Source of the DNA: Blasia pusilla
Lineage: Eukaryota
Assembly (NCBI GenBank): GCA_050084515.1
Contig: CM114271.1
Location: 14,074,001 to 14,138,000 of the forward strand
Direction of reading: 5' to 3'
Length of the DNA: 64,000 bases
Of this stretch, positions 1,500-60,580 are shown in pieces; the stretch's first letter is position 1; each line of letters starts with the position of its first letter. Under the pieces are notes generated by a model that worked only from the letters and a program-made list of their open reading frames with translations, had not been told where the DNA came from and did not search any database. The position numbers and the translations under genes are program-made.

Positions 1500-3326
1500 T
1501 GGTGCGACAAATCACTTATCTATCGTCTCATCGACAAACCATCCTCAACTCTAGACATCCCACATAGGTCTATGTCCCCTAGACCCATACATCATCGATG
1601 CTCCTAGCATGAGCACAAAACCAAATATCCCAAATAACTTCCCAATATCCAAAAATCCCTCACACGTGTAGGGTAAGAGACAAGAATGGATAACCTGACA
1701 ATAATATTGATGTCGCTCCTTGGCAATTGCAAATCTTGACCCCAACTCAATCATCAAGATAACTCCTTCAACCAGCAAGTCGTACTCCTCTCATACTAAC
1801 GCTGCTCAAACCTCCTCAATGTGCGGTGTAGGTCCAACGATCCGGTGCGGCACTGGCAGCATGAAACGGCTACAAATGGCACGGCACTCGGGAATCGGGT
1901 GCGGCACTCGACGGCATACCCTCCTCAATCAGAAATTCACACGCTCTGCTCCTTACTGAAGGAGCGGCTCCGCGATCGAGACAGTGCAGTGCGGCCACGA
2001 GCGGCATGGCACGTTGCGGCTATGGGCGTCACGACACAGTACTCGATCGTTGTCGAGCGACTACCAATCACAACATAGCAGAATGAAATGAAAACTCAAA
2101 CACCATAAACTAGGTCGACTGTGGATGATGGACGGTGGACCGTTGATGGTGACGGTTGATCATTGATGGTGACGGCCGACCGTTGATGGTGACGGTTGAC
2201 CATTGATAGTGGCGGTTGACCGCTGACGGTGACTATGACGGCGACGGCCGCGCCGGCGTGGCGGCTGGTTTAGGGTTTGAATAATTTAACCCTAACAATT
2301 GCCTAGCAATGGAAATTTTGCAAGATTGACCATAATGTTTTGCTCGCAACTCCAAATTGCGCAACATTTATTGCACAACGTGTACAGCTTTACGATCTAC
2401 GACAACTTCAAAAAATATTGAGTCGGACATTCCAATAAAAATTGACGGGGATTGTCGTAAAGCCCAATGTCTCTTTCTCCTACACAAAATTCGGCAGCGC
2501 TTCCGCGTTGATTTCTCTCAACAAAAATGTAAAACCTGTGAAAATACAAATCAGCAAGCTACATGTTGCTCCCGAGAGCACCGGCATGGGGCAACCCGCC
2601 CCCATACTCAATCCCTATTAAAAATTGGGTAGCGCTTACGTGCGCCACTCTTGCACACAAAAAAGAGGCAAAGGAAACATCACAAGTAAGCGGCTCTTGC
2701 TCCAATGAGCACTCTCATGAACGAGGAATACGATCCCCAACCTGCAAAACCGATGAGTGACCAATGAGCTCCCCCATGAAGCTCTCTCACTCACTCATTC
2801 TATCTTTGTAAAATAAGATCCAATCTCTCTCACAACACCATAGTTCTCACATCTGTGCACTCTCACATGTCTCTCTCAATGTCAAACCAAACCCACTCTC
2901 CTAATGAGAGGCTTGAGTAACACACATAAGGCAACCAAGACCATAGCTCCGCCGCCTCATGCCAAGAGGTTCAACAAAGAGAGAATGAGCTCTCAAGCTC
3001 TCTCTCCTTGAGGTATATCCCTCCCCTCTCCCAAGCTCTCTCCATGGTAACCTTTCCTCCCAAGTCACCTCCTTGGCTCTTGATCTGATGTAGGAGGTCA
3101 AAGTCCACTTACCAAAAATAGAAATTTGATCATATACTCAAAATGGTACTTATGTAAAATAGTAAGTTCCTTAATATGGCTCCAAATGAGCCGAAACTAA
3201 GGGGAAACCTGGTCTCTCAAGTTTCCCGGGGCCTCAACAGGTCATCCTCGACCTATTGAGCGTGTCCTCCACTACTCACAAAGGCGCTCTACTAGATCTC
3301 ATCGATCTATCTTAAAAGACGTGACA
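1500..3326 (-). mobile_element. Gypsy-type LTR remnant (terminus TGTCAC on the minus strand at 3326) adjoining the DNMT-Gypsy pol
   Basis: About 2810-3326 is a clearly alignable reverse-complement copy of 59054-59570, the first 500 bp of a TSD-flanked solo LTR. The left boundary is approximate. Confidence 0.7.
2131..2230. repeat. Minisatellite, 5 x 20 bp (consensus GACGGTTGACCRTTGATGGT)
   Basis: Units start at 2131, 2151, 2171, 2191 and 2211. Confidence 0.9.
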
Positions 3327-3720
3327 TACCACATGGTTTTGCGGAGGGCGTATGCGAGAGTGGAGCGCCCCTCCGAGTTGTTGGTGGATTCCATTCTGAA
3401 TCTAGGTCGTCGATCACAGGCAATGAGGCACAATGATTGACCGCCGTTGATTGTGTCAACAGGATTGGCATGCCACGAACAACCTTTCCCACATTTGTGA
3501 GTTTTCTTGCTTCCTATGCATTCAAGGAAGCCGGACCTGGCTTGGTTTGGGATGATCACGTACAGAGGTTGGTGGAGCCCAATGCCGATGAGCGAGAGCT
3601 AGCGATGGGATTCCCCATAAGAGTGACAGCAATACCGTCACTATCTGAGGCATCACGACGTCATGTCTTGGGTGAGGCGATGGACCTGAACTGCTTGACA
3701 TGGATTTTTAGCTTAAGAGT
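3327..3720 (+). pseudogene. Retrotransposon-encoded cytosine-5 DNA methyltransferase fragment (target recognition region plus motifs IX and X)
   Basis: EPNADERELAMGFPIRVT...SEASRRHVLGEAMDLNCLTWIF matches the pattern and spacing of C5-DNMT motif IX (E.ER..GFP..T) and motif X (R...LG) as in DNMT3/DRM C-termini. Same frame as the downstream RT. Motifs I-VIII are absent; the LTR ending at 3326 lies where they would be. Confidence 0.75.
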
Positions 3721-6187
3721 AGCTGGGCAGCGTCGTTTGAGGATGCGACAGATCACAACTATTGCGTTGGTGAGCCCCATGCCTACCGAGATGGTTGAGG
3801 CACTGGATGGGGGCGAGACTCGAGGAGATCAACACTCCAGGGATGATCGGGAGAGACACCCTTGGACTTCTTGGGATGTTTTGCAGGTACGCTAGGAGAT
3901 GATAGCCACAACATCGAGTGTGGTTATGGGTAATGCACGTAGAGATGAGAGTTTGCACTTGGCTGCACGAGAGCTGTCGAGTTCGATTGTAGGAGACGGA
4001 GTTGCACCATAGCAACCACCTACATCCGTGCCAAAGAGTCCTATTGTAGTCACGATGGAGACTTGGGAGCCATATATGGGCCCTAAGTTGATAGGAGGAG
4101 AGCGGCGCCAGATACATCAGTTCCTCAAGAGTTAAAGGATCTGTCTTGCATTTAGCATGCAGGATTTGGGTATGATGAAGGGTCCAGGGATCCGCATTGA
4201 GTTGTCAAGAGACACGCCGATCTTCCGACAACCCTACAGGTACAGTGACATGGAGAGGGCTCTGATTCAGAGTAGGAGCCAGGACTTGGTTGGCGTAGGA
4301 CTAGTGGAGATGTTGCATGGAGAGTATACATTTGCCACTGTCATGCCCGCCAAGAAGGATGTGCATGGCAACTGGACGGATAAGTGGATGTGTGGAGATT
4401 ACGGACCTATCAATTGGCAGACAAAGTCCGATAAGTATGCCATGCCCACTCCTGAGGAGATCTTTGATGCTATTGGGCATGCAAAGGTCTTCATTTCATT
4501 AGATCTTTGAGCGGGATACCATCAGCTGCCTATCAGATTGGAGGACAGGAAGAAGACGGCATTTTGGGGCATCGATCCTCTCGGGAAGGATTGCTTGTAC
4601 CAGTGGCGGTTCTTACCTTTTGGGTTAAAGAATGCCCCGAATGAGTTTCAGAGGGTCATGGATAGGATCTTGGCAGGTCTAGATTTTTCCAGGTGTTATA
4701 TTGATGACATCGTAGTCTTTAGCGCCACGGTTGAGGAGCATAAGCGACATTTAGAGGAGGTGTTTTGACGATTGCAGTTACATGGGCTAAAGCTACATCC
4801 AGGCAAGTGCAAGTTCTTCTACGACCAGATTGAGTACTTGGGTCATACGATATACCCTGGAGGCCTTGGTGTGCAACAGACAAAGATAGAGGCTATCTCA
4901 CGCATTCCATGCCCTACAGATGTGAGTCGATCTTGCTCTCTAGCACAATGGGTGCTAGAGAGCAAGATCAGCTCCAACAGCTAACCATACAGTTTTGGTG
5001 GGAGGGGACACATGTATTGCGAGTGTGGGAGGATGGTAGAGTATGTGTAGTGCCTTATCCTTCGCAGAGAGCACGTTTGGTGCATCATGCCCACGAGGAG
5101 TTGGTTCATTTTGGAGTGAAGCGGACATACAGCTTGCTCCTGATTCAGTATTGGTGATGAGGCATGCAGACTGACGTTCAACAGTTTCTTGCCAGATGCA
5201 TGGTGTGTGATCGAGTCTAAGCATCGTTCAATGCTTTGACTCTACAGTTGCATCCACTTTCGATCATGGATTTAGGTTATAGATGGAGTTTGGATTTTGC
5301 AGGACCTTTACCTTTGACGGAGCGCCGTAGTCGTTATGTGTTGGTGATGGTCGAGCACTCCTCGAAGTGGATAGAGTTGGTTGCATTGCCTGACAAAGCG
5401 AGTGGGGGAGTAGCGTATGCCTTCCTAGATCGAGTGTTGAGTCACTACGGCGCACTAGCTGAGGTGTTGACAGACTAGGATATAGAGTTCTGCGGGAGTT
5501 TCAGGCCTTGTGTGATCAGGCACTCATCGACCACCGCACTACTTCGCGAGATCATCTTGAGGCGGATGGACTAGCGGAGCGGGTTGTGCAGACGGTGAAG
5601 AGAGAACTACGCAAGTATGGCTTGGAGAGAGGTCACCTAGGAGATTGGGACCTTCAGTTGCCGTGGTTGGCAATGGGATACAGATTCAGCATGCAGGCAT
5701 CCTTAGTGTCTTTCTCACCGTACTTGCTTTTGTATGGCCGAGAGCCAGATTTACCTACGGCCATTCCTCGAGATGTTGGTGAGGTGTTGAACCTTGATGA
5801 CCCTGATGTATGGATGCAAGCATGTTCTCAGAGGGTTGAGTTGTTTCGAAGAGGATGCCCATGGCGTTTGAGAACTTGGCGATTGCGCAACATCGGGATA
5901 CATTTAGGTATGCGACTATTCGAGGAGGTGGTTATCGACCTACTATCCGGAGGTTTCATCAAGGAGACTATGTCTACTTGCAAGAGACGGCACCCACAAC
6001 CTTGGATGTGACTGTAGGGCTCACCATCTTGAGAGTGCGTGAGGTTTTGCCATCCGATGTTCTCTTATTGGAGGGACTTGATGGTATGGTTTGGAAGGAC
6101 CATGTGCGTAACAGTGCGCCATGTCATCTTCCGAACACTGACGGTACAGTTGATCTGAGCTTAGCAGTAGTTCTTGCAGGCTTGAGA

Positions 6188-6328
6188 TGTATGTTGTGTG
6201 GTCCCGCCCGTGGTACAGCTACTATGCTAGTTTGTGATGGGTGTTCGAGAGGATGACATATGGCATGTCTGACGCCACCTCTCACTAGGGTTCTTGAGGG
6301 ACGATGGATGTGTCCTAAATGTACATAG
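6188..6328 (+). pseudogene. PHD finger (C4HC3) at the C-terminus of Gypsy integrase
   Basis: CMLC-x8-MLVCDGCSRG*HMACLTPPLTRVLEGRWMCPKC. All eight ligands are present; the stop at 6254-6256 is most simply TGG>TGA. Confidence 0.92.
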
Positions 6329-6483
6329 AGTAGGTAGTTCTACATTTCGACTTGTGTCTGTGACATAGATGACAAGAAGGCGACTAACGATGGGGCCACA
6401 TGAGCACCCGACCTTCTTGCTCTTAACGTCCGAGAGATGTATGTCATGGTAGGTAGGGATAGATGGCTATATGAAGTTAGAGG

Positions 6484-6559
6484 TATTGAAGATTGAGTTA
6501 CAGTCAAGCTCTGATACCATGTGGAAAACTGCTAAACAAGCATAACTGGTGGAAAACGG
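6484..6559. repeat. Chimeric patch of both ends of the Copia LTR at 1143-1466
   Basis: 6484-6511 is the exact reverse complement of 1439-1466. 6508-6559 is a near-exact direct copy of 1143-1194 (PBS plus LTR end). The two pieces overlap at GCTC. Confidence 0.9.
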
Positions 6560-12300: not shown

Positions 12301-15300
12301 TCGTCACCTGAGGTCTTCTAGCATATATTGGAGCAACTCAATTTATAGGTCTTTGGTGACCATACATGCAGTCCCTATGGTATTGAACCACACAATTATT
12401 TGTCTTTTGAGGATTGACTATAGAGAGCCTGTATAAGGTTTTGGTTGCTGCGGATGCTATCATAAGAGTTAAAAATTCATCAGGAGTTTTTCTGCACATT
12501 GCACACGTGGTTGAATCTCACTCCAGTCACCCTTCGTGCAGGTGGTGGCAAAGGTGACTGCCGACAATATGGTCTTTTTGATGAAGGTGTTCTAAATTGT
12601 ATGCATTCTTTTAGCAAGCAACATCCCTTCTGACTTCATCTAATACAAGAGTTTTGCCATTATATAGACGTAGGTGGTGTGGTGTGGCTGTTGGAAAGAA
12701 CATCAGATTCATGAAGCAATTTAATGTTAAAACGCTTGAATCTGAGTAAATAAGAGATGCACAGGGTGCGAAGTCTATATCAGCTCACTAAATAAAAAAA
12801 TTATGTACACTCCAATGACGAGAAGGAGTTCAACTGAGGTGTCTCTGTCATTCCTATGCCTGGCTGATTCAATTACCGTTCCATGTGCAAAGAGGATATG
12901 GAACATGAGAAAATTGTTTGTTACTGAAGCTCCTTAATAGAAAAGAGTAGAAACTTCATGCATTACTGACTTCTTATTATTCAGCTGCACTCTGTGAAGA
13001 GTAGTTCATCTGGAACATATTTTATCACATTGAGTTGGCTACTTTAATACGGTAATCCCGTGTGTGCAGCTAAAGCACAGTGAGTTGGCGCTTACCTCAG
13101 CACAAGGAAGATTATCAGAGATGCAGAAAGAAGTAATTCAATCTCTAACTGCTATTTTATTTGTTGAGGGCTGAAGTCATCTGGAAACTCAATCCAGGAC
13201 AAAGCAATAAGTGATCACACGCCTTTCCTGTCAATTATGTACAATGCAACAGATGTCTCTTGGAGCCAGCCCAAAACTTGCAAATATACAAGAAGTGATG
13301 TTGCTTTTGCATGTCTCTGGCATTTAGATTGAAACTTGTAGGGGACGGTGGCTTGAAGAAGCATCTAGTGAGATTCAAGAGATTGTTTTGAGTAGCTTGA
13401 ACAAGGTAAATTATCCGATCCCAGATTTCAAGATGTGCATCTCTCAAGATGGTTCCGTTGTTTGCTTCCCATGTTTTAGAAAGAAATGACTCAAAGCGTA
13501 GCCCATGTTGAAATTTGTTAATATCTAGTTTAGTCATGCCCTAAAAGTAGTTAGTCAGATACTAACTTAGTTGGATACTAATTTAGTTAGCTAGAGATAA
13601 CTTAGTGTTCCTCTATCTTTTTAGGGTAACCTTGAATTAGGGCAATTCTCGAGTTAGGGCTAGCCACCATTTGTTATTTAGGGTATGGATCTGTTCAATA
13701 AGATCTAAGGGCCAGAAGTGCTCACCCTCATGTATATAATGTCTCTGTTTAGAGAGCATAAGCTAATTCTACAACATGCACAGTTTTGGTGAGGACTCCT
13801 GAGGCTCTTGGCCTTGCTACAGAGTGATCAGAGAGTAGGAAGAGGAGATTGAGACTAATTATTGTGCTTGCTAGAACTTCACTGGAAGGCAGATTGTTTT
13901 GTCTAGTATGCTGATGGAGATTGTTTGAGGTGAGCCATGTCTGATCTCTGATGACATGTGAGGATCTGTAGTGTGAGTGGAAGGTGTGACTGCGTAAAAT
14001 CCTTCTTAGTATCTCTTAAATAATAAGAAGAGTCACATCATGGTAGGGCTCCGATTTGATAATAGAAATAGAAACTGATTTGTTAATTGTGTACAAGCTG
14101 AAATCATGGATGGACTTTGTACAAGGAGATACTTCTGCTGGTCAATCATTTTCTCGGCCCATACTCGATTACGAATGATCCCTAGTTATTCCAGATTTTA
14201 GTGAGTACACTATATTTTACGACGTGAAAATTTCTTCCCGGGATGGGACCTATGTGGATGTGAGGTTGGATGCCATTCAAGTTACTCTGCGGACATTTGT
14301 GTTCAAATAGGTAGATAGGACGCATCGAGACCAATGACGGGCAGAAGTAGCTTGTCCTAATCGTTGAAGTGGATAATGATTTCACTATATTAGGCTGAAG
14401 ATTGCGAGTCAAGACTACAGTTGCTGCAAAGTCAACAGGATAGGCACGCACAGGAGTGGGAGGAGAAGCTAAAGGCAACAACTGAAAAGCTGTTCCAAGT
14501 TACTTCCAGCAGGGACTGGTTCGAGAGAAACTTAATGGAAGCCACGGACAGGTTCGCGACTCTCCTCCTCCTGCAGTTTCCCTCTAAGTCGTGATGATGT
14601 AGCATATAAAGTTGAGGCGAAGAGGGCAAGTTTTGGATTTGATTGCATTCCAAGTATCGATTGATGTTGATGGTTTCCTCGTATCAACAGTTGTTTGCTG
14701 TTGAATTATTGATACTTGGACGTATTTTTACGTAGGAGTGGTGATGTAAAAGAGATAATTAATTAAACAGTGAACCTTTTAGTGAGATCAAGTCAGAATA
14801 TTTTGCTGTTCATAGAGTGGTTAAGATGTGGATATAGAGTTTGAAATCTATGGAGGACGTGGAGTGAAACTGAGATTTCCACAAGTTATGCTTACGGTAA
14901 GAAATTCGTCTTGGCTAACATATTCATTAACTGTGTTTCCACTACCTCCAGCGCAGGTTTAAGGCCTCCGAAGATGAAAATCTGAGATTGGTGCAGACAC
15001 TTGAAAGTGAGTGTGGTTATCGGCAGCAGGCTGAGGCAGAATCACGAGCTCTGATTAGCACACTCAGGGAAACAAATGACGAGGTAATTTCTCAAGCTTT
15101 GCGGTGCGGGCACAGGCTAGATTTTGAGAATTTAACTCTGACGTGCCTACCGTCTTCATGATTTGGTCTGGTCATTCCACTGGGTCGGCCTTCTTGATTA
15201 TGATGAACATGTTGGATTAATCCTGGTCCTCAGGTTAGGAATAGCCCATATTTAGCTTAGATGTCACTTTGAAAATCTTGATTGCATGAATGTAGAGTAG

Positions 15301-17392: not shown

Positions 17393-20300
17393 TGTCGTGC
17401 GCATACACATCGCTACACAACCCACATCGCTGGTCACATTTATACACCACACAACATCGATCGTCCCCAATATACGGGTAGATCCATGCATAACCAAATA
17501 GACTCGCTCATATAGATTGGGACCCCATAATCGTCCCTCTAGCTGGCAGTTGAGTTCCCCTAACTCCAGATAGCACACACATATATACTCGACAAGATCC
17601 CATTTCTTACACATATCTAGCACCATCGGTGTCGTCATCCGTGCAACAGTGCCATATTGTAGCAACCCGTAGTGTTGATCCCTCCAAAGAGATCTAACAT
17701 TCTCTACCCTCCTCCAAATATAGATACAACTCCATGCTTGCCTCACGAGCTCATCTGCACTTCACGCATCTCAATGCTCGTTCCCAACAACAATAAAGAA
17801 GCTCTGCACCATGGGAAGAGACATCCATCTTGACATGTCTCTCCGTTGGACTATCCGCTATGGGAATGTCCTCCGCATGTGCTCCTCTCCCCGAACCGTC
17901 CTGATCAACGAACACCACCTATGAATGTTGCCAACGTGGTCACCGTATCCACACGTGTTCGACCACCACTACTACCTACAAAGTGCATCGGTAGATGGCT
18001 CACTCGTCCATCACCTAATCGCCACCCTGGCCCATAAGAAACTCTCATCCCAAAAATCCAGAATAAACCCAAGGGGATACAACACTATACTCCCCACCAA
18101 CACATCATACGACTTTACTGATGTCGTAATCGCCCGAATGCGCACCATCGCACTATCCGACTCATGTTTTGGTTGCAATCTAACCACCAACTCTTGTCGA
18201 GTTATGAACTGTGTGGGTGATATGCCCCCAATAGAGGTATGTATCTGAAAGGGACAACGCTCGATGTCGCCTTTTTGTAATCCCAACGCCAAACACGCCA
18301 CCTTCAAGGGCTACGCTCCCGAATCAAGTAGGACGCGGTGCGGGTGGTACACTGTACATGTGGGACTAACCAAGCAAAAAACTCATGCTCGGTTATCCAA
18401 AAATACCACATCTGGTGTGATCAGGGCTCGCTCTATCGCAGGCCTAGGTGGCATATCTACCAACTTCTCTGCTGCCGCATGCCATGACTCAATGGGGGAC
18501 GTCCCGAGCTCCTGCTCCGAGGGCAAGTCCACCCCCTCAACTACCTCTGAATGAGGAGCTGTCACCTCTCCACGCTCACATAACGGAGTCGGAACACCTC
18601 CGCTAGTCCAACTCCCAACGTCGCCAACTCCATGGCGGAAAACAACGGAGTCTGGCTCACCCTAGTGCCCACCTCCAACAACATGGTCGACACTAGCTCC
18701 TCCCGAATCGGCATAGGAGTGGTCTCTCCAACTCCTCGTGACGTCGACGAACCTGTCCCACCCGTGGGTACTATCGGTCGCCGAGGCACCATCGACGGTG
18801 TATGTAATGCCTCTGATAATATGAACAACCAGGGAACCCTGGCCTGCCGCCCATCGGTCCTCTCCTGTGGTTCAATCTCAACCCCATCTCTTGATGGCTC
18901 GGTTACTCTCCCATCACCATGAGTCACCACCGCAACAACCTTAACCTGAGCCGCACTATACATAAATCCCATCCCCGTAGAATCCTCACCATCATTATGG
19001 TAAGATGTGGAGGCTGACGCCATACTAGCTACTCTGAGCTCCTCGCTTGCCTGCAACTGCATCATCATCATGGCAACAATCCTCTGCTCCAACGGATCAA
19101 TGCGCGTAAGGAGCGCTGCATCGGGTGTACGTCCTCCATCTCTTGTGACTGGTGATGCACTCTTCCATCACGATCATCCACCACTCGATCTCCACCAACT
19201 CTCTTGCCTCCAAGTCCTCTACCTACCTCAGGATGTACCTCCCGGCAAAGATCATAACACCTATCCCTAGTGTGACCATATCGGTGACAATGATCACACT
19301 GCAACTGTGATGGGGCCATCCTCTCTGGCTCCTGAGCAAACGGAGACGCTTGTGGCCCTCTCCCATGTTGTGGGCAGTCCCTCTGTCTATGCGACCCACC
19401 ACACATCCAACAAGCCAACCCTGGTCCCTACTGGGAAACATATGTCAGGACGGGTCGTTGCCTCATCGGCTCATGATACCTGCCTTGCTCTCCGAGCCCA
19501 CCGGCCCATTCTCGTGGTACAAGTGCATGCTAGGGCACTTGTGGGTCTACTCCTACTTGTCGACCAGTTGAATCCTGCGAAAAACCCGTGGTCACTACTT
19601 GCTCCTCACTCATGTTGAGCTCTATCCGCTCAGATAACTCGAAGATCACCTTCAATGTGGACTTCGCGGTGTGAAGCAACATCGCATCTCAAACTCTCCT
19701 CCGTAGCTCCTCATCCAGCACCCCGTACCAATATTGCACTGATTGCGCCTCAGTCACCCATATGTGGCAACGATCAAACGTTGCATGCTTGTGAACGCCT
19801 CCCTCTGACTCTCACCCAATCTCTGCTGAAAATCATGTAGACTCTTTAGCTTGTTGGTCCGCACGCCTTGGTAGCTCCTCCCTAACTATCGGAACAACTC
19901 CACTGTAGGACTGAAACTCCGTGGTCCTCTACCACAAGAGGTCTCTGCCACCCCACCACTCTCACTGCCATCCTCTCCATCTAGTCCCCGGGCTGATGGT
20001 GACGGTCTCTCCGCTCTCACTATACCATCATACGGATCACGACCACTAGTGGACATATACCCTGGAGCTCAATACACCCTCGAGGCATCGATCTGCAGAG
20101 AGTATAGAGATCAGAACCCCATGTAATCATCCATCAGCGGACCCTCCAAGTGTTGGAACAACCCCTTCCATGCCATAAAAGGGTTGAACCGCGTAGGGGT
20201 CCGTATCTCCTCAGAGTCGCACCACGTGTTGAACTCTTGGATGAAATCATCTAAATCTATGTGCCTACTGCACCCGAGAAACGACGCATGCCCCGATGGC

Positions 20301-21240
20301 CCATGTCGTCCATCTCTCCCCATGTATCACTGTCCCCGTCTGGGATCTCGTCACCAGAGCCACTGTCTAGTGATGACAATCCAGCCACGGATAGGAGTCA
20401 AGGTAGTTCCTCACTAGAAACCCCTCAATACCTCACGCTACTCCGTGTCACTCCACTACCACTGCTTGTACTACCCCATTCTCCCGAACCCTGGGAGAAC
20501 GCCGTGATGACAACCCTGTCTCACCCGCTCAAGCACTCAGACTCACCAAGAGTCTCCCACACTCCTCACTAGCGTAGCGACACTAATGGTAATCTCGTGA
20601 AGACATACCCGGCCTCACGCACACTCAACACTTGGGCTCACCATGAGCTTCCCAACTAACTCACCTAAACCACTGACACTCTTGGGTCATACAAGTGACC
20701 CCTACTCGGCGACCGCCGTATATCCACAAACATGCTACACATGCATGGAGACTACACTCGTCACCATCGCTACACCCACCTAGCACTGACTACTACCCGA
20801 TACCCAGCACCCTCAATGACACGAGACAAGTGCAGAAAAAGGGACTCGAATGGGTAACCTGATAATGCCTTCCAACCTACTGCACCGTCAACACTCACTC
20901 CTCCATGTGGTATGGAAACCTCTGCAACAGGACACCCTCCTCTCACACACGTCGAACCGCCCGTCAGCAGCTGTAGACTACCCGTTGGCATCGACACGTG
21001 TGTCTCCATTACTACCCTCGCAAATCCTAGCCACGCCCGAAAAACATTACGTCCCACAAATCTCTCCGCCCAACCCCCAAGCACTGCTCATCTACTCCAA
21101 GTCACGACAAATCCAAGCAAATGCCCAACCATATCCAATGCCCAACCTGGTCGACAAGCTACCATGTTCTGATCCAACCCCGTCGCCCTCCTACCACGTT
21201 CCTCATTCCGACCATGTTCGTCCTACCGCGTAACCCACTT
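17393..21240 (-). mobile_element. Internally deleted, decayed Gypsy-like element: gag, two CCHC knuckles, aspartic protease, 3' LTR end
   Basis: Gag-like IDLDDFIQEFNTWCD (about 20111-20323); CWMCGGSHRQRDC and CDHCHRYGHTRDRC (19068-19418); protease RVLLDSGA (about 18315-18340) and YDVLVG. LTR terminus ...GCGCACGACA at 17393 is the same as the end of solo LTR 59054-59697. No RT or integrase left. Right boundary approximate. Confidence 0.8.
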
Positions 21241-21309: not shown

Positions 21310-21580
21310 GTTTCCTTGCAGCAGGCTTTTGCTTTTGCGGCGGGCTTAGGCTGTTGGAGACGCCGGCGCTAGAGGCCCACTTAGTAGTAGTCATAGCTCT
21401 CTTGTTGTTGCTGATATTGTCTCTGCTGTTGGTGAGTTTCGTCGTTAGGGGGGGAATGGCCCCTTCTTCCTTTTCTGGTCTTGTTGTGGCCTTCAGGTTT
21501 TGACTCTTTGAGTCCCCCTCTTTTGTACTTCCGATGGGTTTTCCATCACACGTTTTTATCGGAGTGCATCTTTATAATCT
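21310..21580 (+). mobile_element. 5'-truncated copy of the CRE-type non-LTR element (ORF end plus 3' UTR)
   Basis: Aligns with about 25880-26130 (GTTGGAGACGCC...GCTAGAGG.CCACTTAGTA...GCTGATATTGTCTC...CGTTAGGGGGGAA...GATGGGTTT). Confidence 0.85.
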
Positions 21581-22939: not shown

Positions 22940-25900
22940 GACGGAGGGGGTCATGTTCTCTTCTTGGTGAGAGCTCAAATTCTTCACTCGTTCAGGAATT
23001 CGGAACCATTTAGCGGCTAAACATCCTAACTTTCATAGATTCAGATGGATGGTTCTTCCAGTCGATCATGGATGCTCACCGGTGCTTCATGCATCATCGC
23101 CCCCTCCCGAGGCATGGGAGTGGTTGAGGTCCCACCTTGGCAGCATCACTTGTCTCTTTGAGACCCGTTTTCCCTGTCCGAGGTTGTTTCATAGGATCCC
23201 CCATGCTATTCGGGATGAGCTTCGCCAGTCTTTCCTCCTTCCCTTCTCTAGGATCGCACTTGATCCTATGGATGAGCTCTCGTGGTATCTACTACTTCTC
23301 CTTCCACGATGGTGTCTCCGCTATACTCGAGGAGGGAAGGCTGGCCATAGAGAGGTTGTGGCCTGATTGTGGCGCTTCCGAGGAGGTGATTGGGAGTCTC
23401 TATAGAGCGAGTTCGTGGCATATGCCAGAGGTAGCACTCCACGTGGTTTCCCAGCAGACGATCTTGTAGCTGCCAGATTGCGACGATGTAGGAGACTTGG
23501 GCAAGCCGGGGAGTACTCGCGAGCGGCTCGTGCGCTCCGCTCTATGGATATGGCTCCTCCTTCCGCCGTTACCATCGACGCCCTCCGGAGGCTACACCCT
23601 TGTCTAGTGGTTGACATCCCAACATTTGTACGTGACTTCCATCCTGACACGACCTTATGCCTAGACCCGTCCCTCTTTGCACGGGCACTCGGGCGTTCCC
23701 CTAGGATAGCAGCTGGAGGGTTGTCCGGTATGATGTACGAACACCTTCGTGATTGCTTTCCCTCCGAGGACTCTGCTAGCGGCTTTTCCGAGTTGCTTCA
23801 GGTTGCCTCTCACCTAGCTCAGGGGAGAGTGCCAACAGCAGTAGCCCAGGTATTGGGGGCGGGGCGACTTTTGGCGTTATCGAAGGAGGGTGGAGGGATC
23901 CGTCCAATTGCCATAGGGGAGGTGCTCTTGCGGTTGGTGAGTCGCACTATCGCTTTGCAGTTCCGTGAGGCTTTCCAGTCACATCTAGGTCCGCACCAGT
24001 TCGGAGTGGCCACGCCATCCGGTTGTGAGGCTGTAGCCTTAGGTTTGAGGGCTTATTTAGATATCCATCTCGAGTGGGTGGTTCTCCAAGTTGATGTGGA
24101 GAACGCCTTTAACTCAGTGTCTCGGGCAGCTATCTTCACGGAGCTGAGAGATGCAAGGGGTCCCATAGGGAGCCTGATTCCCTTCGTGCATGCTTTGTAT
24201 GGGGCCCCCTCGGCTCTCTATTTTCACCACGGTAGGCTCGAGGAGGAGGAGGTCACGGTCTTGGAGTCTGCTACCGGGATACGTCAGGGTGATCCCTTGG
24301 GTGGTGCATTGTTTGCTTTGGCTCCTTATCGAGCGGTTCTTTCTACGGTGGAGTCTTTCCCGAGTTGCATTTTCCCTTTGTTGGCAAATGATACTCACAT
24401 TGTCGGCCCTGGAGACTTGGTTGTTCCTGCATTTCAGCACTTTTCAGCAGAGTTGGCACACGTCGGCCTCGCGGTGAAAGTGGGAAAGTGCAAGGCTTGG
24501 TCTTCATTAGGCTTGTCCGCAGATATTCATTTACCCGACGGTTTTTTTACACCTGCTGGAGGGCTTTGCGTCTTGGGAGTCCCACTGGGGAGCCACGACT
24601 TTGTATCGAGTTTTGTGGCGGCGGCTCTTACCAAGGATCTTCTTCATGTCGACGATCTCACGAGGATTGGTGACCCTCAAGTAGTTTATGGAATCCTCTC
24701 GTCATGTTTTGCCCGTAGACCTGGTTATTTGTGTAGAACCGTGTGGGCGACTAGCCATATTTCTTCATTGTATAGATCCTTTGATAGAAAGATTATGCAG
24801 GCATTTGGGGATCTTTTAGGACCCGGCTCATTAGAGTGCCCCGCAGGGGAGTTAGCTCGTAGACAGGCTTCTTGGACGATTGCCTTTGGTGGAGTAGGTC
24901 TCATAGCGACTGAGTTAGTGGCGTCTTCAGCCTTTTTAGGGAGTTGGGCCAGTGTAACACCCCTCCTTTGCTCCCGATTTTTGGTTAGGGATAGACCGCT
25001 ACTTTTACAGTACGTTTCCTAGGTTGAGGATGGTCTTTTCCCACTTCAGTCTTCACTCATAGCTTGTAGAGACTCCCTTCTTGTTGAGGCTAGAGCAGTT
25101 CTTCCCGCTTTCTCTTCCCTAGTTACCTCCGGACAGTCTGGGCTCCAATCTTCTTTGATGGAAGCCCACTTTGATGCATTGTTTAGAGCTACTATGTTGG
25201 ACCGGAATATCCCCATGGAGGTTCAGGCCCGTATTCGCTCTTGCTCCGGAAAGGGGGCAGGCTCATGGGTGGGGGCTTGTCCCCTCATCCCGGATTTCCG
25301 CATCGCACCACTTACCTACACTACAGCGATGAGGTTCCGACTGGGCCTGCCCCAACCAACAGTGGTTGGTTCAACACATTGCAAGTGTTGCCAGAGTTTG
25401 GATCCACTTGGTGTGCATTTGGCACGGTGTCCAGTTGAGGGTGAGAGGATAGCCACTCACGATGCAGTGCGGGATATTATAATCTCTATTGCTTGGGAGA
25501 GTGGATTCCATGTACAAAGAGAGAGGCACTACTCCATGCAGGATTCCCTTATCCGTGCTGATCTCTACATGACGAGGGAGTCTGACGTGGTGGTAGCGGA
25601 TGTTGTAGTGACGGATCCTACACAGGAGGCAGTGCAAGCCCAAGTGGTAGCACAAGGGAGATTGCTACAAGGAGCGGTGGCGGCGGCGGTCAAGAAGACC
25701 CACATTTATAGTCGACTTCATGACGGACATCGATTTATCCCCCTAGCCATTGAGATGTACGGGGCGATGGGGGAGAGGTTTGACTCGTTCCTTACGGATT
25801 GCGCCCATCATCTCTAGTCGAGAAATGGGTTGTCCTTAGCCACTGCGATACTTTATTGTAGGCAACGGGTCTCCATAGCTTTGCAGCGCGCCCAGGAAAA

Positions 25901-26150
25901 TGGGCTTCTGCGGGGGGCTCAAGCGGTTGGAGACGCCAATGCTAGAGGTCCACTTAGTATTAATCATAGTTCTCTAGGTGTTGCTGATATTGTCTCATCT
26001 GTTGGTGATTTTGGTCGTTAGGGGGGAAGGCCCCCTTCTTTCTCCTCGGGGCCGGTTCCGGCCTCTTGAGGTCTTTTTTTTGGGTCTCCATGCCCCCTCT
26101 TTTGTATCGTGATGGGTTTCCCATCCTTTTTCTACATATATATTTTATAT
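22940..26150 (+). mobile_element. Non-LTR retrotransposon, CRE-like clade (C2H2 remnant - RT - CCHC - restriction-like endonuclease), near full length, inactivated by point stops
   Basis: RT motifs IRPIAIGE, HQFGV, DVENAFNSVSR, GIRQGDPLG, LANDTH (degenerate YxDD), LGVPLG. C-terminal CKC...HLARC...HDAVRD, RADL, VADV, KKTHIY and FIPLAIEMYG are typical of RLE domains. N-terminal FFTRSGIRNHLAAKHP is half of a zinc finger. Stops at 23364, 25020 and 25815; natural stop about 26019-26021. Confidence 0.88.
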
Positions 26151-28874: not shown

Positions 28875-29130
28875 CCTAGTTGGCAGTTGGGTCCCTCTAA
28901 TTCCATATAGCAGACATCACATCTACTTGACATGATCTACTTCTCTATACACATCTTCTACCATTGGTGTGTCATCCCTGCAACATCTCCCAACACATAC
29001 TTGTCCACGGATCCATCTCATCGATCTCCACCTAGACATATCAATGTATCCGGATGTCATCGTGCAACACTAGAGTTGACGTGTTGATCTCTCCAAAGAG
29101 ATTTTAACACTCACACCCTCCTCCAAACGC
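28875..29130 (-). repeat. Fragment related to the Gypsy LTR/3' region at 17540-17720
   Basis: Shared blocks TGGCAGTTG, ACCAT.GGTGT, GTTGATC.CTCCAAAGAGAT, ACCCTCCTCCAAA. Confidence 0.65.
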
Positions 29131-31456: not shown

Positions 31457-32138
31457 TGTTGAACTTTGTTAATATCTAGTTTAGTCATGCTCTAAAAATA
31501 GTTAGTCAAATACTAACTTAGTTGGATACTAATTTAGTTAGCTAGAGATAACTTAGTGTTCCTCTATCTTTTAGGGTAACCTTGAATTAGGGCAATTCTC
31601 GAGTTAGGGTTAGCCACCATTTGTTATTTAGGGTATGGATCTGTTCAAGAAGATCTAAGGGCCAGAAGTGTTCACCCTGATGTATATAATGTCTCTGTTT
31701 AGAAAGCAGAAGCCAATTCTACAACATGCACAATTTTGGTGAGGACTCCTGAGGCTCTTGGTCCTACTGCAGAGTGATCAAAGAGTAGGAAGAGGAGATT
31801 CAGACTAATTGCTGTACTTGCTAGAGCCTCACTGGAAGGCAAGTTGTTTTGTCTAGTATGCTGATGGAGATTGTTTGTGCTCAATGGTGAGCCATGTCTG
31901 ATCTCTGAGCTGGTGACATGTGAGGACCTGTAGTGTGAGTGCAAGGTGTGGCTGAGTAGAATCCATCTTAGTATCTCTTAGATAGTAAGAAGAGTCACAT
32001 CATGGTAGGGCTCTGATTTGGCAATAGAGATAGGAACTGATTTGCTGATTGTGTACAAGCTGAAATCATGGATGGTCTAGCTGATGCTAGCTCTGACTTT
32101 GTACAAGGAGATACTTCTGCTGGTCAATCATATTCTCA
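31457..32138 (+). mobile_element. Solo LTR, same family as 13506-14156, flanked by a 73-bp direct duplication
   Basis: TGTTGAA...TTCTCA termini. 31383-31455 is identical to 32139-32211. Confidence 0.9.
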
Positions 32139-32521: not shown

Positions 32522-35500
32522 TCAACTCAGAGCTCCAGCAGAGGTGGTGCACTGTTGATTAACAATGGAAGAATACATGGTAAAATCTGGTGTATGTGTG
32601 AAATTAGGGACGAAATCTAGGCAGAAGCGGAAAACTGAAGCCAATTTTTGTGGATCGTTGAGAGTAATTGCAGCTTCAAGAAATGATGCTGGAGCCACTG
32701 TCTCAACCTGTACACCAAAAACACATTGACTATGAGAAATTTGTTTTTCACAAACACCTCACCAGTATATTATTGACAGACAACCTGAAACGAAATTGGG
32801 AAAGAACATCTTGTAAGCAGCTGTTTTGGTTCAATCCCTTCCATTATCTGAGATTTTGGTGCACAGAACGTCTGCAAGTTATCAAATATTTGTAAGGTCA
32901 TTTCACATCACCTTATTTTGACGAACATAGCGAAGTCCCTCCAGTATACGGCCCTCCTGCAGTAAAACCTTAATATAGTCTGCATGCCCATGAACCTGAC
33001 GCAGCATGTCCAGTCCCAGTCTGCGAGTAGAAGTGTGCTGAGACCCTGCTTCCAAAAGTTGTATCGCTACTGCCTTTGAAGGAGGCACCACCTTCCCAGT
33101 AACTAGCTGCCACAGTTCATAGTATCTTTGTTCCTGAGCAAGTAGTTGTATAATGAGCACATGTAAGCCAGGATTTACCCTCAGTTGTTCTGCTGCCGCA
33201 CTGTCAAGTCCATGTGAGCAGAATCAGTGACATATAAAAGTATTGAAAATATTCTATATGCGAGTGGTGAATCCAAACACTGCTGACTCTAAGATGTCAA
33301 CTGTCATCTTTTCCAAAAGATACTCCAACTCTATGTCAACTCCACCCTCCAGCTATCAGAAGTCTATCCTCACTACGTTGTGATGGCATTCACACTGCCT
33401 GTTGCTTGGCTTTCAACATTATGTGTGACTGTTTAGACATGGGTAGAATTTCACAACAGCATATGATTTGAAATCTGTATGGCCAAAACTCCTAATGTTC
33501 TCAACTCATCATGTCTCGATATGTAAACCACAAATGGTCTTTGATTCCATACCTCCTCAAATATTCAACAATTGCCGCTACTAAAAAGGTTGAATCAACA
33601 GCCATGTCTTCTTCGATGACATTAAATACATTTCGCTGCATCTCCTCAGGTGAAATCAGCGGATTTGTAACACCTTTAAATGTGCCAGGCTCCATCAAAG
33701 AGGTTTCCATCATACCCCGTTGAACCTGCTTGCTGCTCTGCCCGGAGACAGAAGAATGCTTGGATTGTGAAGATGTGATAGAAGACTCGATCTCTGTTTC
33801 CACTCTGCTGGTGGTTGGGTTGACCCCACCTGCTGCAGCACAGTTCTCACTGGGTTCCTCAAGTTTTGAACTACTATTATCTGAATCTTGATCATCTTGA
33901 TCTGAGTTACCTTGTGCCCACCTTGATGAACTACCACCATCACCCCTGTGAGTTCCTTCTACTGATCCGTTTTTCTCACTCTCTTCAGAATCTTGAGCTC
34001 CCTTGGTAGCTGTATGAGGTAAAATCCTTCCAGCAATATCACATGCTTGTGCAGCTTGAGAGTTTGCCGAGGCCCTGGGACCAGATTGAGCATTTTTTAT
34101 TACATAACTCCCATCGTAAACATTTGTTGGTTTTGCAGCCCTTGCATACGATGAAGTAATAACGTCCATAGCACTTGCTATGAGTGCCAAAGGTCGTCTT
34201 TCAACAATCATAGCACGAGTAACTTCTATGGACAGCAGTTTTGCCTGTTTCACAAGAGATTTGGTTACATTCTACAATTATTTAGAGCATGCACATTGGT
34301 CTATTTAGAACTGGCACAAACCAGCAGCGATAGCTTTAAAAATCTGTCAGTTCAAAGCCCAAGGTGTGTGCCCTCCTAAAAATTGTCAGAACTTTGTGTG
34401 CGAATTTGGAGAATCATATTGATGTAGAAGAGGTGGCACACACTGTGATATTCTAATCTGGCTTATCTTGTCAGAGATGGACAAGAGGAGGCAGGCATGT
34501 GAACAAAGCTAAGGAAAATACAATCACTAAGCACACACATAGAGACGACCTTGCTTGCTTCATGTCGTCGACGTTGAAGAAAACTCAGTAATGATGGTAT
34601 GTCGGAGGAGCTTGCAGCAATAGCCTGGGAACATTTTCCAGGAAACATCTCATAACAAGCAGGCATCCAATACGCTGATCAAATGTGTAAGTCACATGAA
34701 AGACGTGCATGACATTATCAAAGTTCTCTATGATCTACACCACAGAGAACACTGAGCCAACAACTAGGAGTACCTAAGCTCTTAAGAAACTGTAGTGCTG
34801 CAAATTCAGTTAGACAAATCCAACACACCAGTGAACACACCTCCAAGTCTAGTCGTATTCTCCATAGAAGACCATGGACATGGTCCAACACTATATCAGG
34901 ATTCACGAACACCCAACCACTGTCATAAAGTTTAGCTTCTGAAGGTGCAACACTTCCCAGATGGTCAGGCTCTGCAGAGGAACTTCCAGTGCTGTTTACA
35001 CTTTCAATAGCTCGTACTGACAACCCAGAAACTGGAACTCCCCGCAAAAGAAGAGGCAGAGGTGCCGAGATAGGAACCTTAGGATCAGACATGATATCAT
35101 AAAGGAGAACCACTTTTGAATCGATTTCATGAATCAGAAGCACATTATCCACAACGCTAAGTGCAACATTCCTTGAATAGATGGGTAAAGATCCCTGTGA
35201 TACCAGGCCAAAGTGTCGAGCGATTAGTTATCAGTTAGCTAAATTTAGTTTGGACCCAAACACTTGAGGCTGGGGATTGATGTGTGTCATAGGCTCCAGA
35301 GTTATCAGCATTTAGAGCCACCCATTATTTTTAGGAACATCTCCTATTCCCTCAAGATGGAGCACTGGCGACCAGACACAGGCATAGTCTACTAACTGGA
35401 ACTCCTCTTCCATCATTGGCAGCACACTTTTAATGAGCCAGAATACAAACCTCCCATGGACCTTGAGGACCATGGATCAAAATGAAACTAAAGATCGCTA

Positions 35501-41009: not shown

Positions 41010-41278
41010 CTTGAGACTCACGTTCAAAAATACAAACTTCACATCGTATTGGTATATAGGCCAACGTCTTGTTCTTGCCACATGTAGATTAAGGAGTGGA
41101 GTTTTAGACCAGGTGAGCTATTTTTACTACTCTGATTTTGTTGTGGGGTCTCAATGTATATGCGTGAGTTTTTTTCGTTTATGGATGGATCAACCAGTGT
41201 GTTGGGAAGATCAGTGTTGTGTGGTGTGTTGATGTGACCAGCGATGTGGGTTGTGTAGCGATGTGTCTGCGCAATACA
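41010..41278 (+). repeat. Gypsy LTR 3'-end fragment
   Basis: GTGACCAGCGATGTGGGTTGTGTAGCGATGTGTCTGCGCA is the near-exact reverse complement of 17398-17437. Confidence 0.75.
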
Positions 41279-42961: not shown

Positions 42962-45900
42962 CTATCTAGGAGGCATGGCAGTAAGCTCTATGTTGGATCT
43001 AGTATTAGTAATACTCCCTGAGAAGCTTGATTGACCATGTTTGAGCAATGGAGCCTTTCCACTCTCAATAAAATTAAGAAGCGTATTGTTAGAAGAACTA
43101 GCCTCAAAGAGATGTTCGTACATTGGCGGTATGCTCTTTAATTCATTGATTATCTCAACTACTACCCCTGTATTTCCCAAAAGCATGATCACTACTTGAG
43201 ACATTGTGGGTCGTTTGGTTCGATCCTCTTGAAGACACAAAAGCGCAACTTTCAACACTCGTATCACCTCCTCTAAGTCCTCTTTGGAACACATTTCCCG
43301 AAGCTCCAATTGTAAAAGCTCCAACAACTTTTCTTTCTTGAAAAGTTCAAATGCCTACACATAGAAACACAATATTCAAATATATTCTTAGTATTGTAAT
43401 GTCATGGTAGCTATTTTTTTGGAAGTTTACTACATAATATTCTCTATAATTAAGAGAGTTTTTGTCTAAGCCCAAGTAACTACAGGAACTCCAAAAATTG
43501 AGTGGAAAAACCACAAGGATGTTTGAGATAGTAAGTTGATTTAATGACATGAGTAGGGAGTTTCAATTGGTTATATAATTGCAATCGTAATGTATGTGAG
43601 CTTTCAAATATACCCTTGTTAACCTAGGTGATTTGAAGAAAACCTACCCAATTCCTTAGAAAGACGAGTTTTTCTTGCAAGGAACGATCAATGCATTTCC
43701 TTCCAGCTACTATCTCCAACATAAGGATGCCATAGCTGTAGACATCGAGTTTCTCGGTGAGCACCCCATTAGTTGCATACTCTGGCGAGATGTAACCCCT
43801 GCAAGTTCCCACCAAAGAAAATTTTGAACTTGAATAATGTTGGTAGCCTATAAGGCTCTTATTCAATCTTAACTATATAGGTTTTAGACAAATTTAAAGT
43901 TCAAATTTGAAGATTTGATTTTTTCGTTAGACTAAGTTTCTTGGGTATAACAAGAGTGATGGGATAGTGTATATATGTTTGGAAGAAGTTGCTAAAACCA
44001 AGTAGATTAAACTATTAGAAGACATACAATGTTCCACCATAACTGTTGAAAATTTGAGTCTTATCTTCCATGATAGGCCATGCGAGTCCAAAATCTGCGA
44101 TTTTTGCATCAAGATTCTTGTCGAGAAGAATATTTTCAGGCTTGATATCCCTACAAAGCGCAATTTAAAATTATGAGTAAGAAATTTCCTATACCTTTTA
44201 TGGAGAGAATTTTCAATCAAGATATGTACATGGAAAGTGATAACAATGATATGTACATGGAAAGTGATAACAAGGATATGTACATGGAGAGTGATAACAA
44301 CTATCTATGAAGGGTTGATGGATGAGAAAAGCTTACCTATGAATTATCCTTGGTTGTAATTCTTCATGGAGATAAGAAAGACCACGTGCAATTCCCAAAC
44401 AGATTTTAAAACGTTGTGGCCAATCCAAAATCTTTTCAACCTTTTCACCTACAATTTCCCATCTCATCATTAGTGTGCAAAAACCTTCATAAGATTTCAA
44501 AAGCACAATTATAATACCTCAATCTAACTCTAATTACAATTTTGAGATCTAAAGCTATTTTATTGTTCATATGGTTTCTAGATATTCAAGAAAAACATAA
44601 TAACCTACTCCTTGACCGTCTCTTGCACGAGACTACCTATGATGATTCTAAAAATTGAAACTAGTTATATTTTTTTACCCAATGATACTCCTAAGCAAGT
44701 AATCAATAAAAATTTTTAAGAGTTCAAGTTTGAATATGTAATCATATTTCCAATGGAATCTTTTTTTGAAGGTTTAGTTCTTAAGCGTTTGATATGAGTC
44801 ATATAAGATAATGGAGCATGATTGAGAATATCTAAGTGAAATGAATGGATGATCATGATAATTAACAAGTAAACAACATACCCCACAATGCCTCGGCCAC
44901 GTTTTTCCCTTCTGCATATTCGTAGACCAATATGCGTTGCTCATCCCTTAGACAACAACCTTTGAGTTGAATTAAATTTCGATGTTTGATCCCGTTTATC
45001 AAAACCACTTCATTAAAAAAATCATCAAGAGTATTTGGGGAGGAATTAAGAACTTTCACTGCTAGGGTTGTCCCATTATCAAGAACTGCCTGCAATTGAC
45101 CAAACATTACATCAATTGATTATCAGAAAATTTCAACTAGGTCTCTACATTGTCTCAAGTGGATGTTGCAAAAAAATAGTAACATTCAAGCTAAGATTCA
45201 TCCCTTGTTATTCTTAAACATCTCTTTGCTTTAAATCTAGGAACAAAAAATAAGGAATTTCTACAAATGGAGTGGGAGTTACAATTCAAAAGCTTAAAAG
45301 GGGTTTAATTAATTTTTGGAGTGGAGAATTGACTTTATTTTGGAGAGTAATTTTTAATGTTATTCATAATATTAATAATAATTAATGGAGTAAATCCAAT
45401 TGGATGGCACTGAGTCTCTAGTTTTGAAATTTTCATATGTATGCTAGAAATCTAGAAATCCCATACATTGGACCGATTTCAAATATCATAAATGTGATGT
45501 AGTGTGCAATACCTTGTAAACATTCCCAAAGGCACCTGCTCCTAATTTATGCTCTTGGTGAAAACCTCGTGTTGCTGCTTTTAGTAATTGGTATTTGTAG
45601 AATGGTGGATGCACCTTTCGTTTCTCTAGACCTGAATTATTGGAGAGATTGTAAATCACGAGTAGGATCATTAAAGTTACAATATGATTTTAACCTCATG
45701 AAACTCATAGTGTTGTAATACATTCACAAGCATCATTTTTTAATCTTGAATTTTTTAATGCAGACTACTAGGTCTTCTGGTTTCTGGAAAGATGTATCAT
45801 TCAAAGGAAACTACTTCATGATTTCATCGGAAAAACTTATAAACTATATACGGTGGCCTAGACGATTGAGAAAAAAATTTTCTTGAGTATTACGTACCTT

Positions 45901-59805: not shown

Positions 59806-60580
59806 AGATAGATGTGGCTCAATACGCCGATGTAGATTCAAGAATGGAAGAGAGTGTTCAATTTCCATCGCAAAGCACGAACGAGGAACAAATGAGAGTC
59901 GAGTGCTCTGGCTGTTTAGTACTCCCTAAACAGCCCTCTCAAGCGGGTACCTAAAACCTACCTTACCGCCGAAAGTCAAAAGCGTTCTCATATCCTCTAC
60001 GCGTGTGACTCCAATCCTTCCATTTGAATCGTGCAGACAGGTCAGTATAATTTGGAACGTTTCCTTAGGAATCGCCTTCTCGGGTCTAATCAATCGCTTG
60101 AGTTTACCAGTTTGGAAGTCTTGCTCCTCAGTCCTCTAGGATCAAGTGATCACGAGCATTAAAGAATTAACAATGGACTCGCACCGAATGCGTTATCACA
60201 GCTCTTGAATGAAATAGCTTAGATTCTGAAAATGGTCAGTACTTCTTCACTTTCAAGTTGTCCACCAGATTTATTGAGATTTTCAGAGTTGAGCACAGAA
60301 AGTCTGGTTTCATTCGCCCAACCATGGTCAGCTGTAGCATTTTTTCGAATCGAATTCCCGTGATTGAATTTCCTTCACTCGAGTGAACTACTTTCTCTAA
60401 TCCTACGACTCGTCCAGCATAGTGAGAGCATGTCATTAGATCATATCGATTCCAATAGTTGTAGTTTCTGCAACGAGGGATTCATAGTGCATTTGCATCG
60501 CACGGCTCAATTGACGGCTAGAAAACCAGTCAATCGAGCTTTGTCGATGATTCTGACTGCACGTGGCTGTGGGAAAGCAG

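Follow-up and report, generated by a model that had tools for sequence, protein, structure and literature searches.

A dead Gypsy retrotransposon copy in Blasia pusilla, very probably from a land-plant family with a DNMT3-like domain, a conserved in-frame stop and a terminal PHD finger

Transposons that carry the very enzyme by which they are normally silenced represent a rare turn in the contest between genomes and their parasites. The closest described system is KnitGypsy-Dnmt3 from the charophyte alga Klebsormidium nitens, which de Mendoza et al. (2018; PMC5890265) present as a long terminal repeat (LTR)/Gypsy-type element with an unrearranged Dnmt3-type domain inside its polyprotein, acquired independently in the K. 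nitens lineage and held under purifying selection (Ka/Ks, the ratio of nonsynonymous to synonymous substitution, below 0.2). The same paper describes SymbioDIRS-Dnmt3 and SymbioLINE-Dnmt from dinoflagellates, compared here by description. These are also retrotransposons with their own cytosine methyltransferase, but they belong to other classes (tyrosine-recombinase DIRS elements and long interspersed nuclear elements, or LINEs), and the authors take them as independent captures. Retrotransposon DNMTs are reported in that text to methylate CG de novo, and self-methylation of the element's complementary DNA (cDNA) is suggested. Two later reports mention DNMT3s embedded in retrotransposons “in streptophytes” (a 2025 paper, PMC12344493) and “streptophytes (Gypsy-DNMT3)” (a 2026 preprint). 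A different comparison is offered by the chromoviruses, in which, as cited in PMC6673714, the integrase ends in a chromodomain that is believed to direct new insertions toward heterochromatin.

Here we examine a stretch of 64,000 nucleotides from the land plant Blasia pusilla (assembly GCA_050084515.1, contig CM114271.1, positions 14,074,001 to 14,138,000), hereafter called the window. Positions 3327 to ∼6483 on its plus strand hold what we regard with high confidence as a dead copy of a Ty3/Gypsy element, from a family that carries a DNMT3-like domain, a conserved in-frame stop and a terminal PHD finger. The element is a new land-plant member of the streptophyte Gypsy-DNMT3 elements. Like KnitGypsy-Dnmt3, the family is of LTR/Gypsy type and has its Dnmt3-type domain inside the polyprotein; its host, in contrast, is a land plant rather than a charophyte alga, and five related loci have plain direct LTRs, whereas a figure legend in PMC5890265 gives the K. 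nitens repeats as DIRS-like. With chromoviruses the family shares a histone-mark reader at the integrase end, although the reader is a PHD finger instead of a chromodomain and chromoviruses have no methyltransferase. In the literature searched, insofar as its text was available, Klebsormidium is the only plant-lineage host reported for DNMT transposons. For land plants, no Gypsy element with a DNMT was found described there, although supplements or subscription journals may hold one. Neither the conserved stop, nor the terminal PHD finger, nor the two alternative DNMT positions described below were found in print in that literature, and the main text of PMC5890265 has no occurrence of either “PHD” or “Marchantia”.

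The copy can be read against 80 related loci obtained from one scan of metagenome contigs. The most intact of these, L051, runs through gag (with two CCHC knuckles), protease (PR), DNMT, reverse transcriptase (RT), RNase H (RH) and integrase (INT) for 2163 codons with two stops, and then reaches its contig end. In the window, homology to the DNMT of the relatives sets in at 3327-3336 (tblastn), after motif VIII and at the edge of a dispersed repeat (2809-3327, with an inverted copy at 59053-59570, 90%) that does not belong to the Gypsy element and truncates its 5′ part. The DNMT3-like remnant at 3327-3736 (+) comprises the target-recognition end, motif IX (3590-3616) and motif X (3656-3691). 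It contains one frameshift, from frame 3 to frame 2 near 3437-3497, such that residues 1172-1225 of L051 match 3336-3497 while residues 1206 onward match from 3437; residues 972-1105 of another relative, P0049, also match the remnant. The poorly conserved linker that follows (3737-4009) is the tail of the first frame past the DNMT, as judged from an alignment of 36 loci and the window, and is interrupted by a decay stop at 3893 (TAG). The conserved in-frame stop, TAG CAA CCA at 4010-4018, separates this frame from that of RT, RH, INT and PHD.

Downstream of the stop, the reverse transcriptase occupies 4049-4930 (+), with YIDD at 4697-4708, an RVT_1 match at 4460-4852 (Pfam, E 2.9e-29) and 61% identity both to L051 residues 1206-1702 and to P0048 (tblastn). 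It is broken by stops at 4133 (TAA), 4508 and 4766, and a further stop of the same frame lies at 4982. At 4927-4933 the alignment with L051 skips from residue 1702 (end 4930) to residue 1988 (start 4927), and because of this jump of about 285 codons we conclude that RNase H, which lies there in relatives, has been deleted from this copy. Integrase follows at 4927-5854 in frames 1 and then 3, first the zinc-binding HHCC region (HEELVHFG, 5092-5115) and then the catalytic core, with stops at 5155, 5158 and 5218. Residues 1988-2163 of L051 match 4927-5454 at 71%, and the rve region of P0023 (Pfam, residues 1122-1210) matches 5254-5633. The C-terminal region of integrase continues in frame 2 over 5855-6328 and ends in the PHD finger that the initial annotation had proposed, which Pfam recovers at 6188-6322 (E 6.1e-11) with one stop inside it. 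The polyprotein stop lies one codon past the last Cys pair of the finger. A 3′ untranslated remnant without a 3′ LTR (6329-6483) keeps similarity to relatives until 6400 (tblastn).

A comparison of repeats within the window found no LTR pair flanking the copy. From 6484 onward the window matches pieces at 1143-1194 and 1439-1466, and two pairings, 6508-6559 with 1143-1194 and 6484-6511 with the reverse complement of 1439-1466, were considered as LTRs of the copy and rejected as other transposon debris. The first pair is a 52-base stretch present twice at 98% identity, its second occurrence lying directly past the Gypsy fragment; the 12-mer that ends the minus-strand stretch is presumably a primer-binding site for initiator tRNA-Met. 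The copy is an inert fossil. Of the DNMT it retains the last third, with motifs IX and X, and beyond this it still has the stop, RT, integrase and PHD. Gag and protease are gone, as are motifs I-VIII of the DNMT, RNase H and the LTR at either end. The initial annotation had already called it dead and lacking motifs I-VIII, and tblastn of the relatives likewise finds none of these motifs in the window; the loss of RNase H is an addition.

The methyltransferase assignment began with two short strings, ERELAMGFP (3590-3616) and RRHVLGEAMD (3656-3685), which had been taken as motifs IX and X of a C5 DNA methyltransferase; both are in frame 2, as are the open reading frames (ORFs) beginning at 3437, 4157, 4538 and 4772. 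The 152-residue ORF at 3437-3892 has 51 longer protein homologues (best E 1.9e-44, 60% identity). Those with names come from Sphagnum jensenii, S. fallax, S. troendelagicum, Marchantia polymorpha, Calypogeia fissa and Riccia sorocarpa, and many of the homologues carry a PF00145 annotation. When relatives were re-scanned, six of eight exceeded the PF00145 curated cut-off (32-58 bits against a cut-off of 22) with a match spanning the motif IV to VI region, and further sets passed at 4/4 and 5/5. Full-length relatives also possess the upstream motifs whose presence the initial annotation had predicted. In P0006, P0008, P0029 and P0048, and likewise in L051, motifs I (DLFGG), IV (GWPCQ), VI (ENV), VIII (RAHRAR-like), IX (ERERAMGF) and X (LGQAMD) stand in canonical order with a constant spacing of 86/46/37/101/26 residues.

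A family profile built from 13 relatives and the window was run against solved structures. It matches DNMT3A at 1e-24 (90 bits) and DNMT3B at ∼1e-21 (80 bits), ahead of plant DRM (5e-12, 48 bits), bacterial M.HaeIII/M.HhaI (∼1e-6, about 30 bits) and DNMT2 (∼1e-5, 26 bits), and in a second stretch the motif IX-X region of the family aligns with the DNMT3A C-terminus. For the core of an AlphaFold model of relative P0003, the top Foldseek matches are all DNMT3A/3B (E 3e-12, TM score ∼0.72 on target). Cellular DNMT3A/3B are therefore the best matches by both profile and fold, and share the motif order of the family; they differ in motif X, and the family domain is part of a gag-PR fusion. Neither a PWWP nor an ADD domain was found by Pfam in eight relatives scanned, as would be expected of a captured catalytic domain, although cellular DNMT3s of some lineages also lack domains of this type, according to PMC12344493. 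Because of the homologues, the ordered motifs, the DNMT3A profile match and the fold match, the window segment is assigned, by sequence likeness, as the tail of a DNMT3-type C5 methyltransferase domain. This domain appears nearer to DNMT3 than to DRM, DNMT2 or the bacterial enzymes, a placement taken from profile and Foldseek scores.

Comparison of the relatives gives the family layout as LTR, gag-PR-DNMT, conserved in-frame stop, RT-RH-INT-PHD, LTR. The LTR is ∼0.33 kb, gag bears two CCHC knuckles and the protease is of the aspartic type. Pfam finds PR then DNMT in P0049, DNMT, RT and RNase H in P0048, and the integrase core (rve) last in P0023. The Ty3/Gypsy order, with PR, RT, RNase H and, last, integrase, is seen in the relatives, and in the window RT precedes integrase with RNase H deleted. 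Direct LTR pairs with TG..CA ends were present in five of 14 long loci examined (307-344 bp, 89-94% identical, 8.67-8.89 kb apart). The integrase-tail and PHD region (window 5855-6400) is matched at 60-74% in 31 of the 80 loci, where it lies ∼4 kb past the DNMT and ∼0.2 kb before the 3′ LTR. The PHD finger of relatives scores between E 2e-13 and 3e-8, an intact Cys4-His-Cys3 pattern is kept in L049 and L074, and the polyprotein of relatives ends four residues past the finger.

The stop at 4010 proved to be a family trait. Linkers were aligned wherever the RT is in frame past motif X, which is true for 37 of 65 motif-X stretches; the others lie at contig ends or are frameshifted. A stop occupies one homologous position in 36 of these 37 linkers, including those of the window and of the divergent loci L051 and L080. 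Its context is TAG-CAA-CCN in 25 linkers, TAA-CAA-CCC in ten and TAG-TAG-CCA in one, and the remaining linker reads TAC. The window (TAG CAA CCA) and L051 have the same stop, and the protein sequence flanking it is not conserved. Between PR and DNMT there is no conserved stop; where L051 has its first stop, its sister L055 has an amino acid. The gag-PR-DNMT models of Marchantia and of metagenomes terminate 95-148 residues past motif X, and those Marchantia models that do run into RT skip the linker at a different point each, as predicted introns would. With this stop lying between it and RT, the DNMT closes the gag-PR frame, and RT-RH-INT-PHD continues in that frame beyond the stop. The domain had initially been assigned to pol. 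It is indeed inside the Gypsy element and in frame with RT, but it ends the gag-PR frame instead of opening the next one. In the same way, the three point stops listed in the initial annotation (3893, 4010 and 4133) all exist, but that at 4010 is the conserved stop of the family.

Several observations weigh against this account of the family and its domain. No PF00145 or other DNMT family matched window 3245-4156 at E≤10 with stops read as X, so the profile check envisaged for the fragment failed and the link to C5 methyltransferases goes via the relatives, whose profile match to DNMT3A overrides this negative. The AlphaFold model is poor (mean pLDDT, the predicted local distance difference test, of 51.5, with the window-matching part mostly below 50), and the fold match consequently rests on the core only. 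Most copies are dead: the DNMT is stop-free in only three of 39 loci that have a full-length, one-piece domain, and no fully intact element was seen among the fetched loci. In comparisons of L051 with nine other copies, the dN/dS of the DNMT is 0.12-0.17, a ratio that is rough because dS between subfamilies is saturated (1.7-2.4), and inside the main subfamily dN/dS rises to 0.23-0.88. The stop itself is not universal, since the DNMT runs into RT without a stop in one metagenome lineage (P0120, P0253). Finally, a search for conserved RNA structure past the stop returned a weak RNAalifold hairpin (−7.66 kcal/mol, covariation term +0.34) in which one of 15 pairs is compensatory.

These last two observations bear directly on how the stop functions. 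Readthrough of it may be leaky in active copies, by analogy with the gammaretrovirus gag-pol and the tobamovirus replicase. The alternative that survives best, which we nonetheless think unlikely, is that the stop past the DNMT is a true terminator and that RT-RH-INT-PHD is made by reinitiation, from a spliced or subgenomic RNA, or by frameshifting elsewhere. The lack of a supported downstream RNA structure and the lineage without any stop speak for a terminator, as does the third codon of the main subfamily, which is CCC where L051 and the window have CCA. The tobamovirus-type readthrough context is CAR-YYA, from which CCC departs. Against a terminator, the RT lies in the frame of the DNMT in all 37 readable linkers, and the first Met past the stop is not conserved (QPMASS, QPVLKS, QPPTSV). 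Moreover, CAA CCN is kept past the stop in 35 of the 37 linkers even though the flanking protein sequence is not, which suggests selection on the nucleotide context.

The DNMT sits with Gag and protease, and this location is one reason to ask whether it is an enzyme at all. The domain might be conserved without methylating DNA; it would then bind DNA or RNA, form a structural part of the particle, or act on RNA in the manner of DNMT2. We judge this improbable. A place in the gag-PR frame is odd for an enzyme that acts on integrated DNA, and motif X of the family reads GQAMD or GEAMD, unlike the aligned residues of DNMT3A. Yet the catalytic motifs are kept, namely I (DLFGG), IV (GWPCQ, with its Cys), VI (ENV) and the Arg pair of VIII, and the low dN/dS between subfamilies argues for a retained function, as does the de novo CG methylation reported for retrotransposon DNMTs (PMC5890265). 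By its dN/dS the DNMT domain appears to be under purifying selection between subfamilies, comparable to the Ka/Ks below 0.2 given for KnitGypsy-Dnmt3 in the same paper.

A fragment of a host DNMT3 gene brought beside an ordinary Gypsy element at this one locus, by nested insertion or rearrangement, would be a far less probable source of the domain. Such an origin is invited by the surroundings, a mosaic of transposon pieces in which the fragment begins at a breakpoint, position 3327. However, the DNMT-linker-RT junction recurs with the same stop in 36 independent loci and is present in annotated Marchantia and Sphagnum proteins, LTRs enclose the DNMT together with gag, PR, RT and INT, and the PWWP and ADD domains were not found in the relatives scanned. 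A chance resemblance of a Gypsy linker to motifs IX and X, without any methyltransferase, can be dismissed, for despite the missing PF00145 match of the fragment there are the 51 homologues, their upstream parts with motifs I-VIII and the DNMT3A match of the family profile.

Two further properties of the copies concern their history. A common frameshift soon after the DNMT is found in L019, L024, L030, L047, L052-L054, L057, L062, L063, L066, L069 and L075, which suggests a subfamily that was spreading while already defective in frame. The CpG observed/expected ratio is 0.28 in L051 (6810 bases), 0.66 in the window copy and 0.64 in the whole window, and the depletion in L051 is what would be expected from long-term CG methylation followed by deamination.

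The family extends beyond bryophytes. Its profile matches 9342 representative proteins at E≤0.001 and 414 representative clusters at E≤1e-30, many of them long polyproteins. Organism names among the 20 representatives looked up include Scenedesmus sp. PABB004 (“pol”), Closterium sp. NIES-53 and Klebsormidium nitens (GAQ93235.1). The family is present in liverworts, Sphagnum and two streptophyte algae. The K. nitens protein, presumably one of the elements of PMC5890265, has CCHC, PR and DNMT (Pfam) as in the bryophyte order and can be aligned collinearly over 569 residues with its Marchantia counterpart (29%, E 1e-54). The Closterium protein matches the family in the DNMT (39% identity, E 4e-63), in gag (E 1e-14) and also at the protease end.

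A second group has a different domain order. The Scenedesmus group, which is partly chlorophyte (KAF8056149.1 and metagenome polyproteins), has a homologous DNMT (35-42% identity, 254 bits to the family profile) and, like the window family, the Gypsy RT-RH-INT set with a PHD at the integrase end; unlike it, this group has its DNMT after RNase H and before integrase, the order RT, RNase H, DNMT, integrase, PHD being found by Pfam in six of six proteins. When domains were mapped by BLAST in 177 proteins of at least 600 residues, 48 had the first order and 124 the second, with five left unassigned. DNMT trees, which are unrooted and contain no cellular outgroup, separate the two orders by a single change. 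In a FastTree analysis of 192 domains, all 38 first-order rows and 12 unassigned rows fall on one side (support 97), and an IQ-TREE quick search of 74 rows, with one long-branch row excluded, places the same split at an SH-aLRT (Shimodaira–Hasegawa-like approximate likelihood ratio test) value of 94. The K. nitens protein GAQ93235.1 groups on the side of the bryophyte copies. Tentatively, and with considerable doubt, all of these might represent a single old LTR lineage with DNMT3 and PHD that persisted across green plants, its hosts ranging from algae, both chlorophyte and streptophyte, to peat mosses and liverworts, and in which the DNMT moved once within the polyprotein and, in land plants, would be made with Gag-PR upstream of a leaky stop and maybe packaged. 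If so, the DNMT could be as abundant as the capsid protein and might methylate the newly made DNA by the time it integrates or earlier. Should copies in Marchantia or Sphagnum still be expressed as well, some de novo cytosine methylation in these model bryophytes would come from a source so far overlooked.

How an active element might use these parts can be sketched. It would make the gag-PR-DNMT protein in bulk and RT-RH-INT-PHD through occasional readthrough of the stop, and the DNMT, released by the protease, might methylate the new DNA of the element or its surroundings. The PHD finger, on the other side of the conserved stop from the DNMT, could anchor integrase on nucleosomes whose H3 tail is in one particular state, with unmethylated H3K4 the likeliest, and so steer insertion as chromodomains do in chromoviruses. 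The nearest solved PHD fingers are those of CHD4, KMT2C/D, PHF12, PHF21A, ATXR5, KDM5A/B, DPF3, UHRF1 and AIRE. The mark recognised by the majority of them is unmodified H3K4 or H3R2, and for this reason targeting to H3K4-unmethylated chromatin is favored. The idea of a combined writer and reader, put forward in the initial annotation, is a plausible hypothesis.

Liverworts, among them the model Marchantia polymorpha, and Sphagnum thus have elements with the gag-PR-DNMT layout known from the alga. The acquisition is then no longer confined to a single algal lineage but belongs to a family that reached land plants or survived into them, and its biology becomes testable in a genetically tractable host. 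Concrete handles are the stop that would set the ratio of DNMT to RT, the integrase PHD and a sister group with the DNMT elsewhere in the polyprotein.

Elsewhere in the window, at 17732-20314 (−), the DNMT-Gypsy family has left another fragment, which covers gag (CCHC), protease (DSGA, 18325-18314) and the linker until just before motif I. Residues 2-758 of P0008 match 20314-17977 and residues 120-834 of L051 match 20260-18041 (tblastn); the fragment is frameshifted and has stops, and ADELVRQAW at 17758-17732 (−) resembles a linker motif of the family. The two fragments are nearly complementary and jointly miss only the stretch with motifs I-VIII. Related repeat pieces adjoin both. Pieces of this unclassified dispersed repeat lie at 2809-3327, 59053-59570, 17393-17718, 28876-29127, 41141-41273 and 59669-59697; the copy at 2809-3327 forms the 5′ breakpoint of the DNMT fragment, and related pieces stand beside the 3′ end of the gag-PR fragment.

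Other mobile elements are also represented. A Copia-type gag is found at 1-693 (−) (Pfam Retrotran_gag_2). A long open frame at 23406-25817 (+), of 538 and 264 residues, has an RVT_1 match (E 8.4e-14), and no LTR-element domains were detected within it; it is possibly a non-LTR element, and imperfect direct repeats at 21331-21547 and 25904-26125 bracket it. Three adjoining direct-repeat blocks at 13506-14116 recur at 31457-32078 (90-97% identical, ∼17.95 kb apart) and might represent either a segmental duplication or the LTR pair of an exceptionally long element.

Host sequences include a malectin-like receptor kinase gene of liverwort affinities at 42962-52326 (−), whose exon at 51424-52326 (−) draws all 18 of its protein matches from Riccia or Marchantia (31-45% identity), in keeping with a land-plant and probably liverwort host. 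A second malectin-like exon at 60557-62452 (+) continues in one open frame directly into a Copia gag and Pol beta-barrel domain, followed by Copia integrase and RT until the window end. An open frame at 33501-34271 (−), with a weak match to RMC1_C (the C-terminal domain of the regulator of the MON1-CCZ1 complex, E 2.4e-6), is probably an exon of a host gene.

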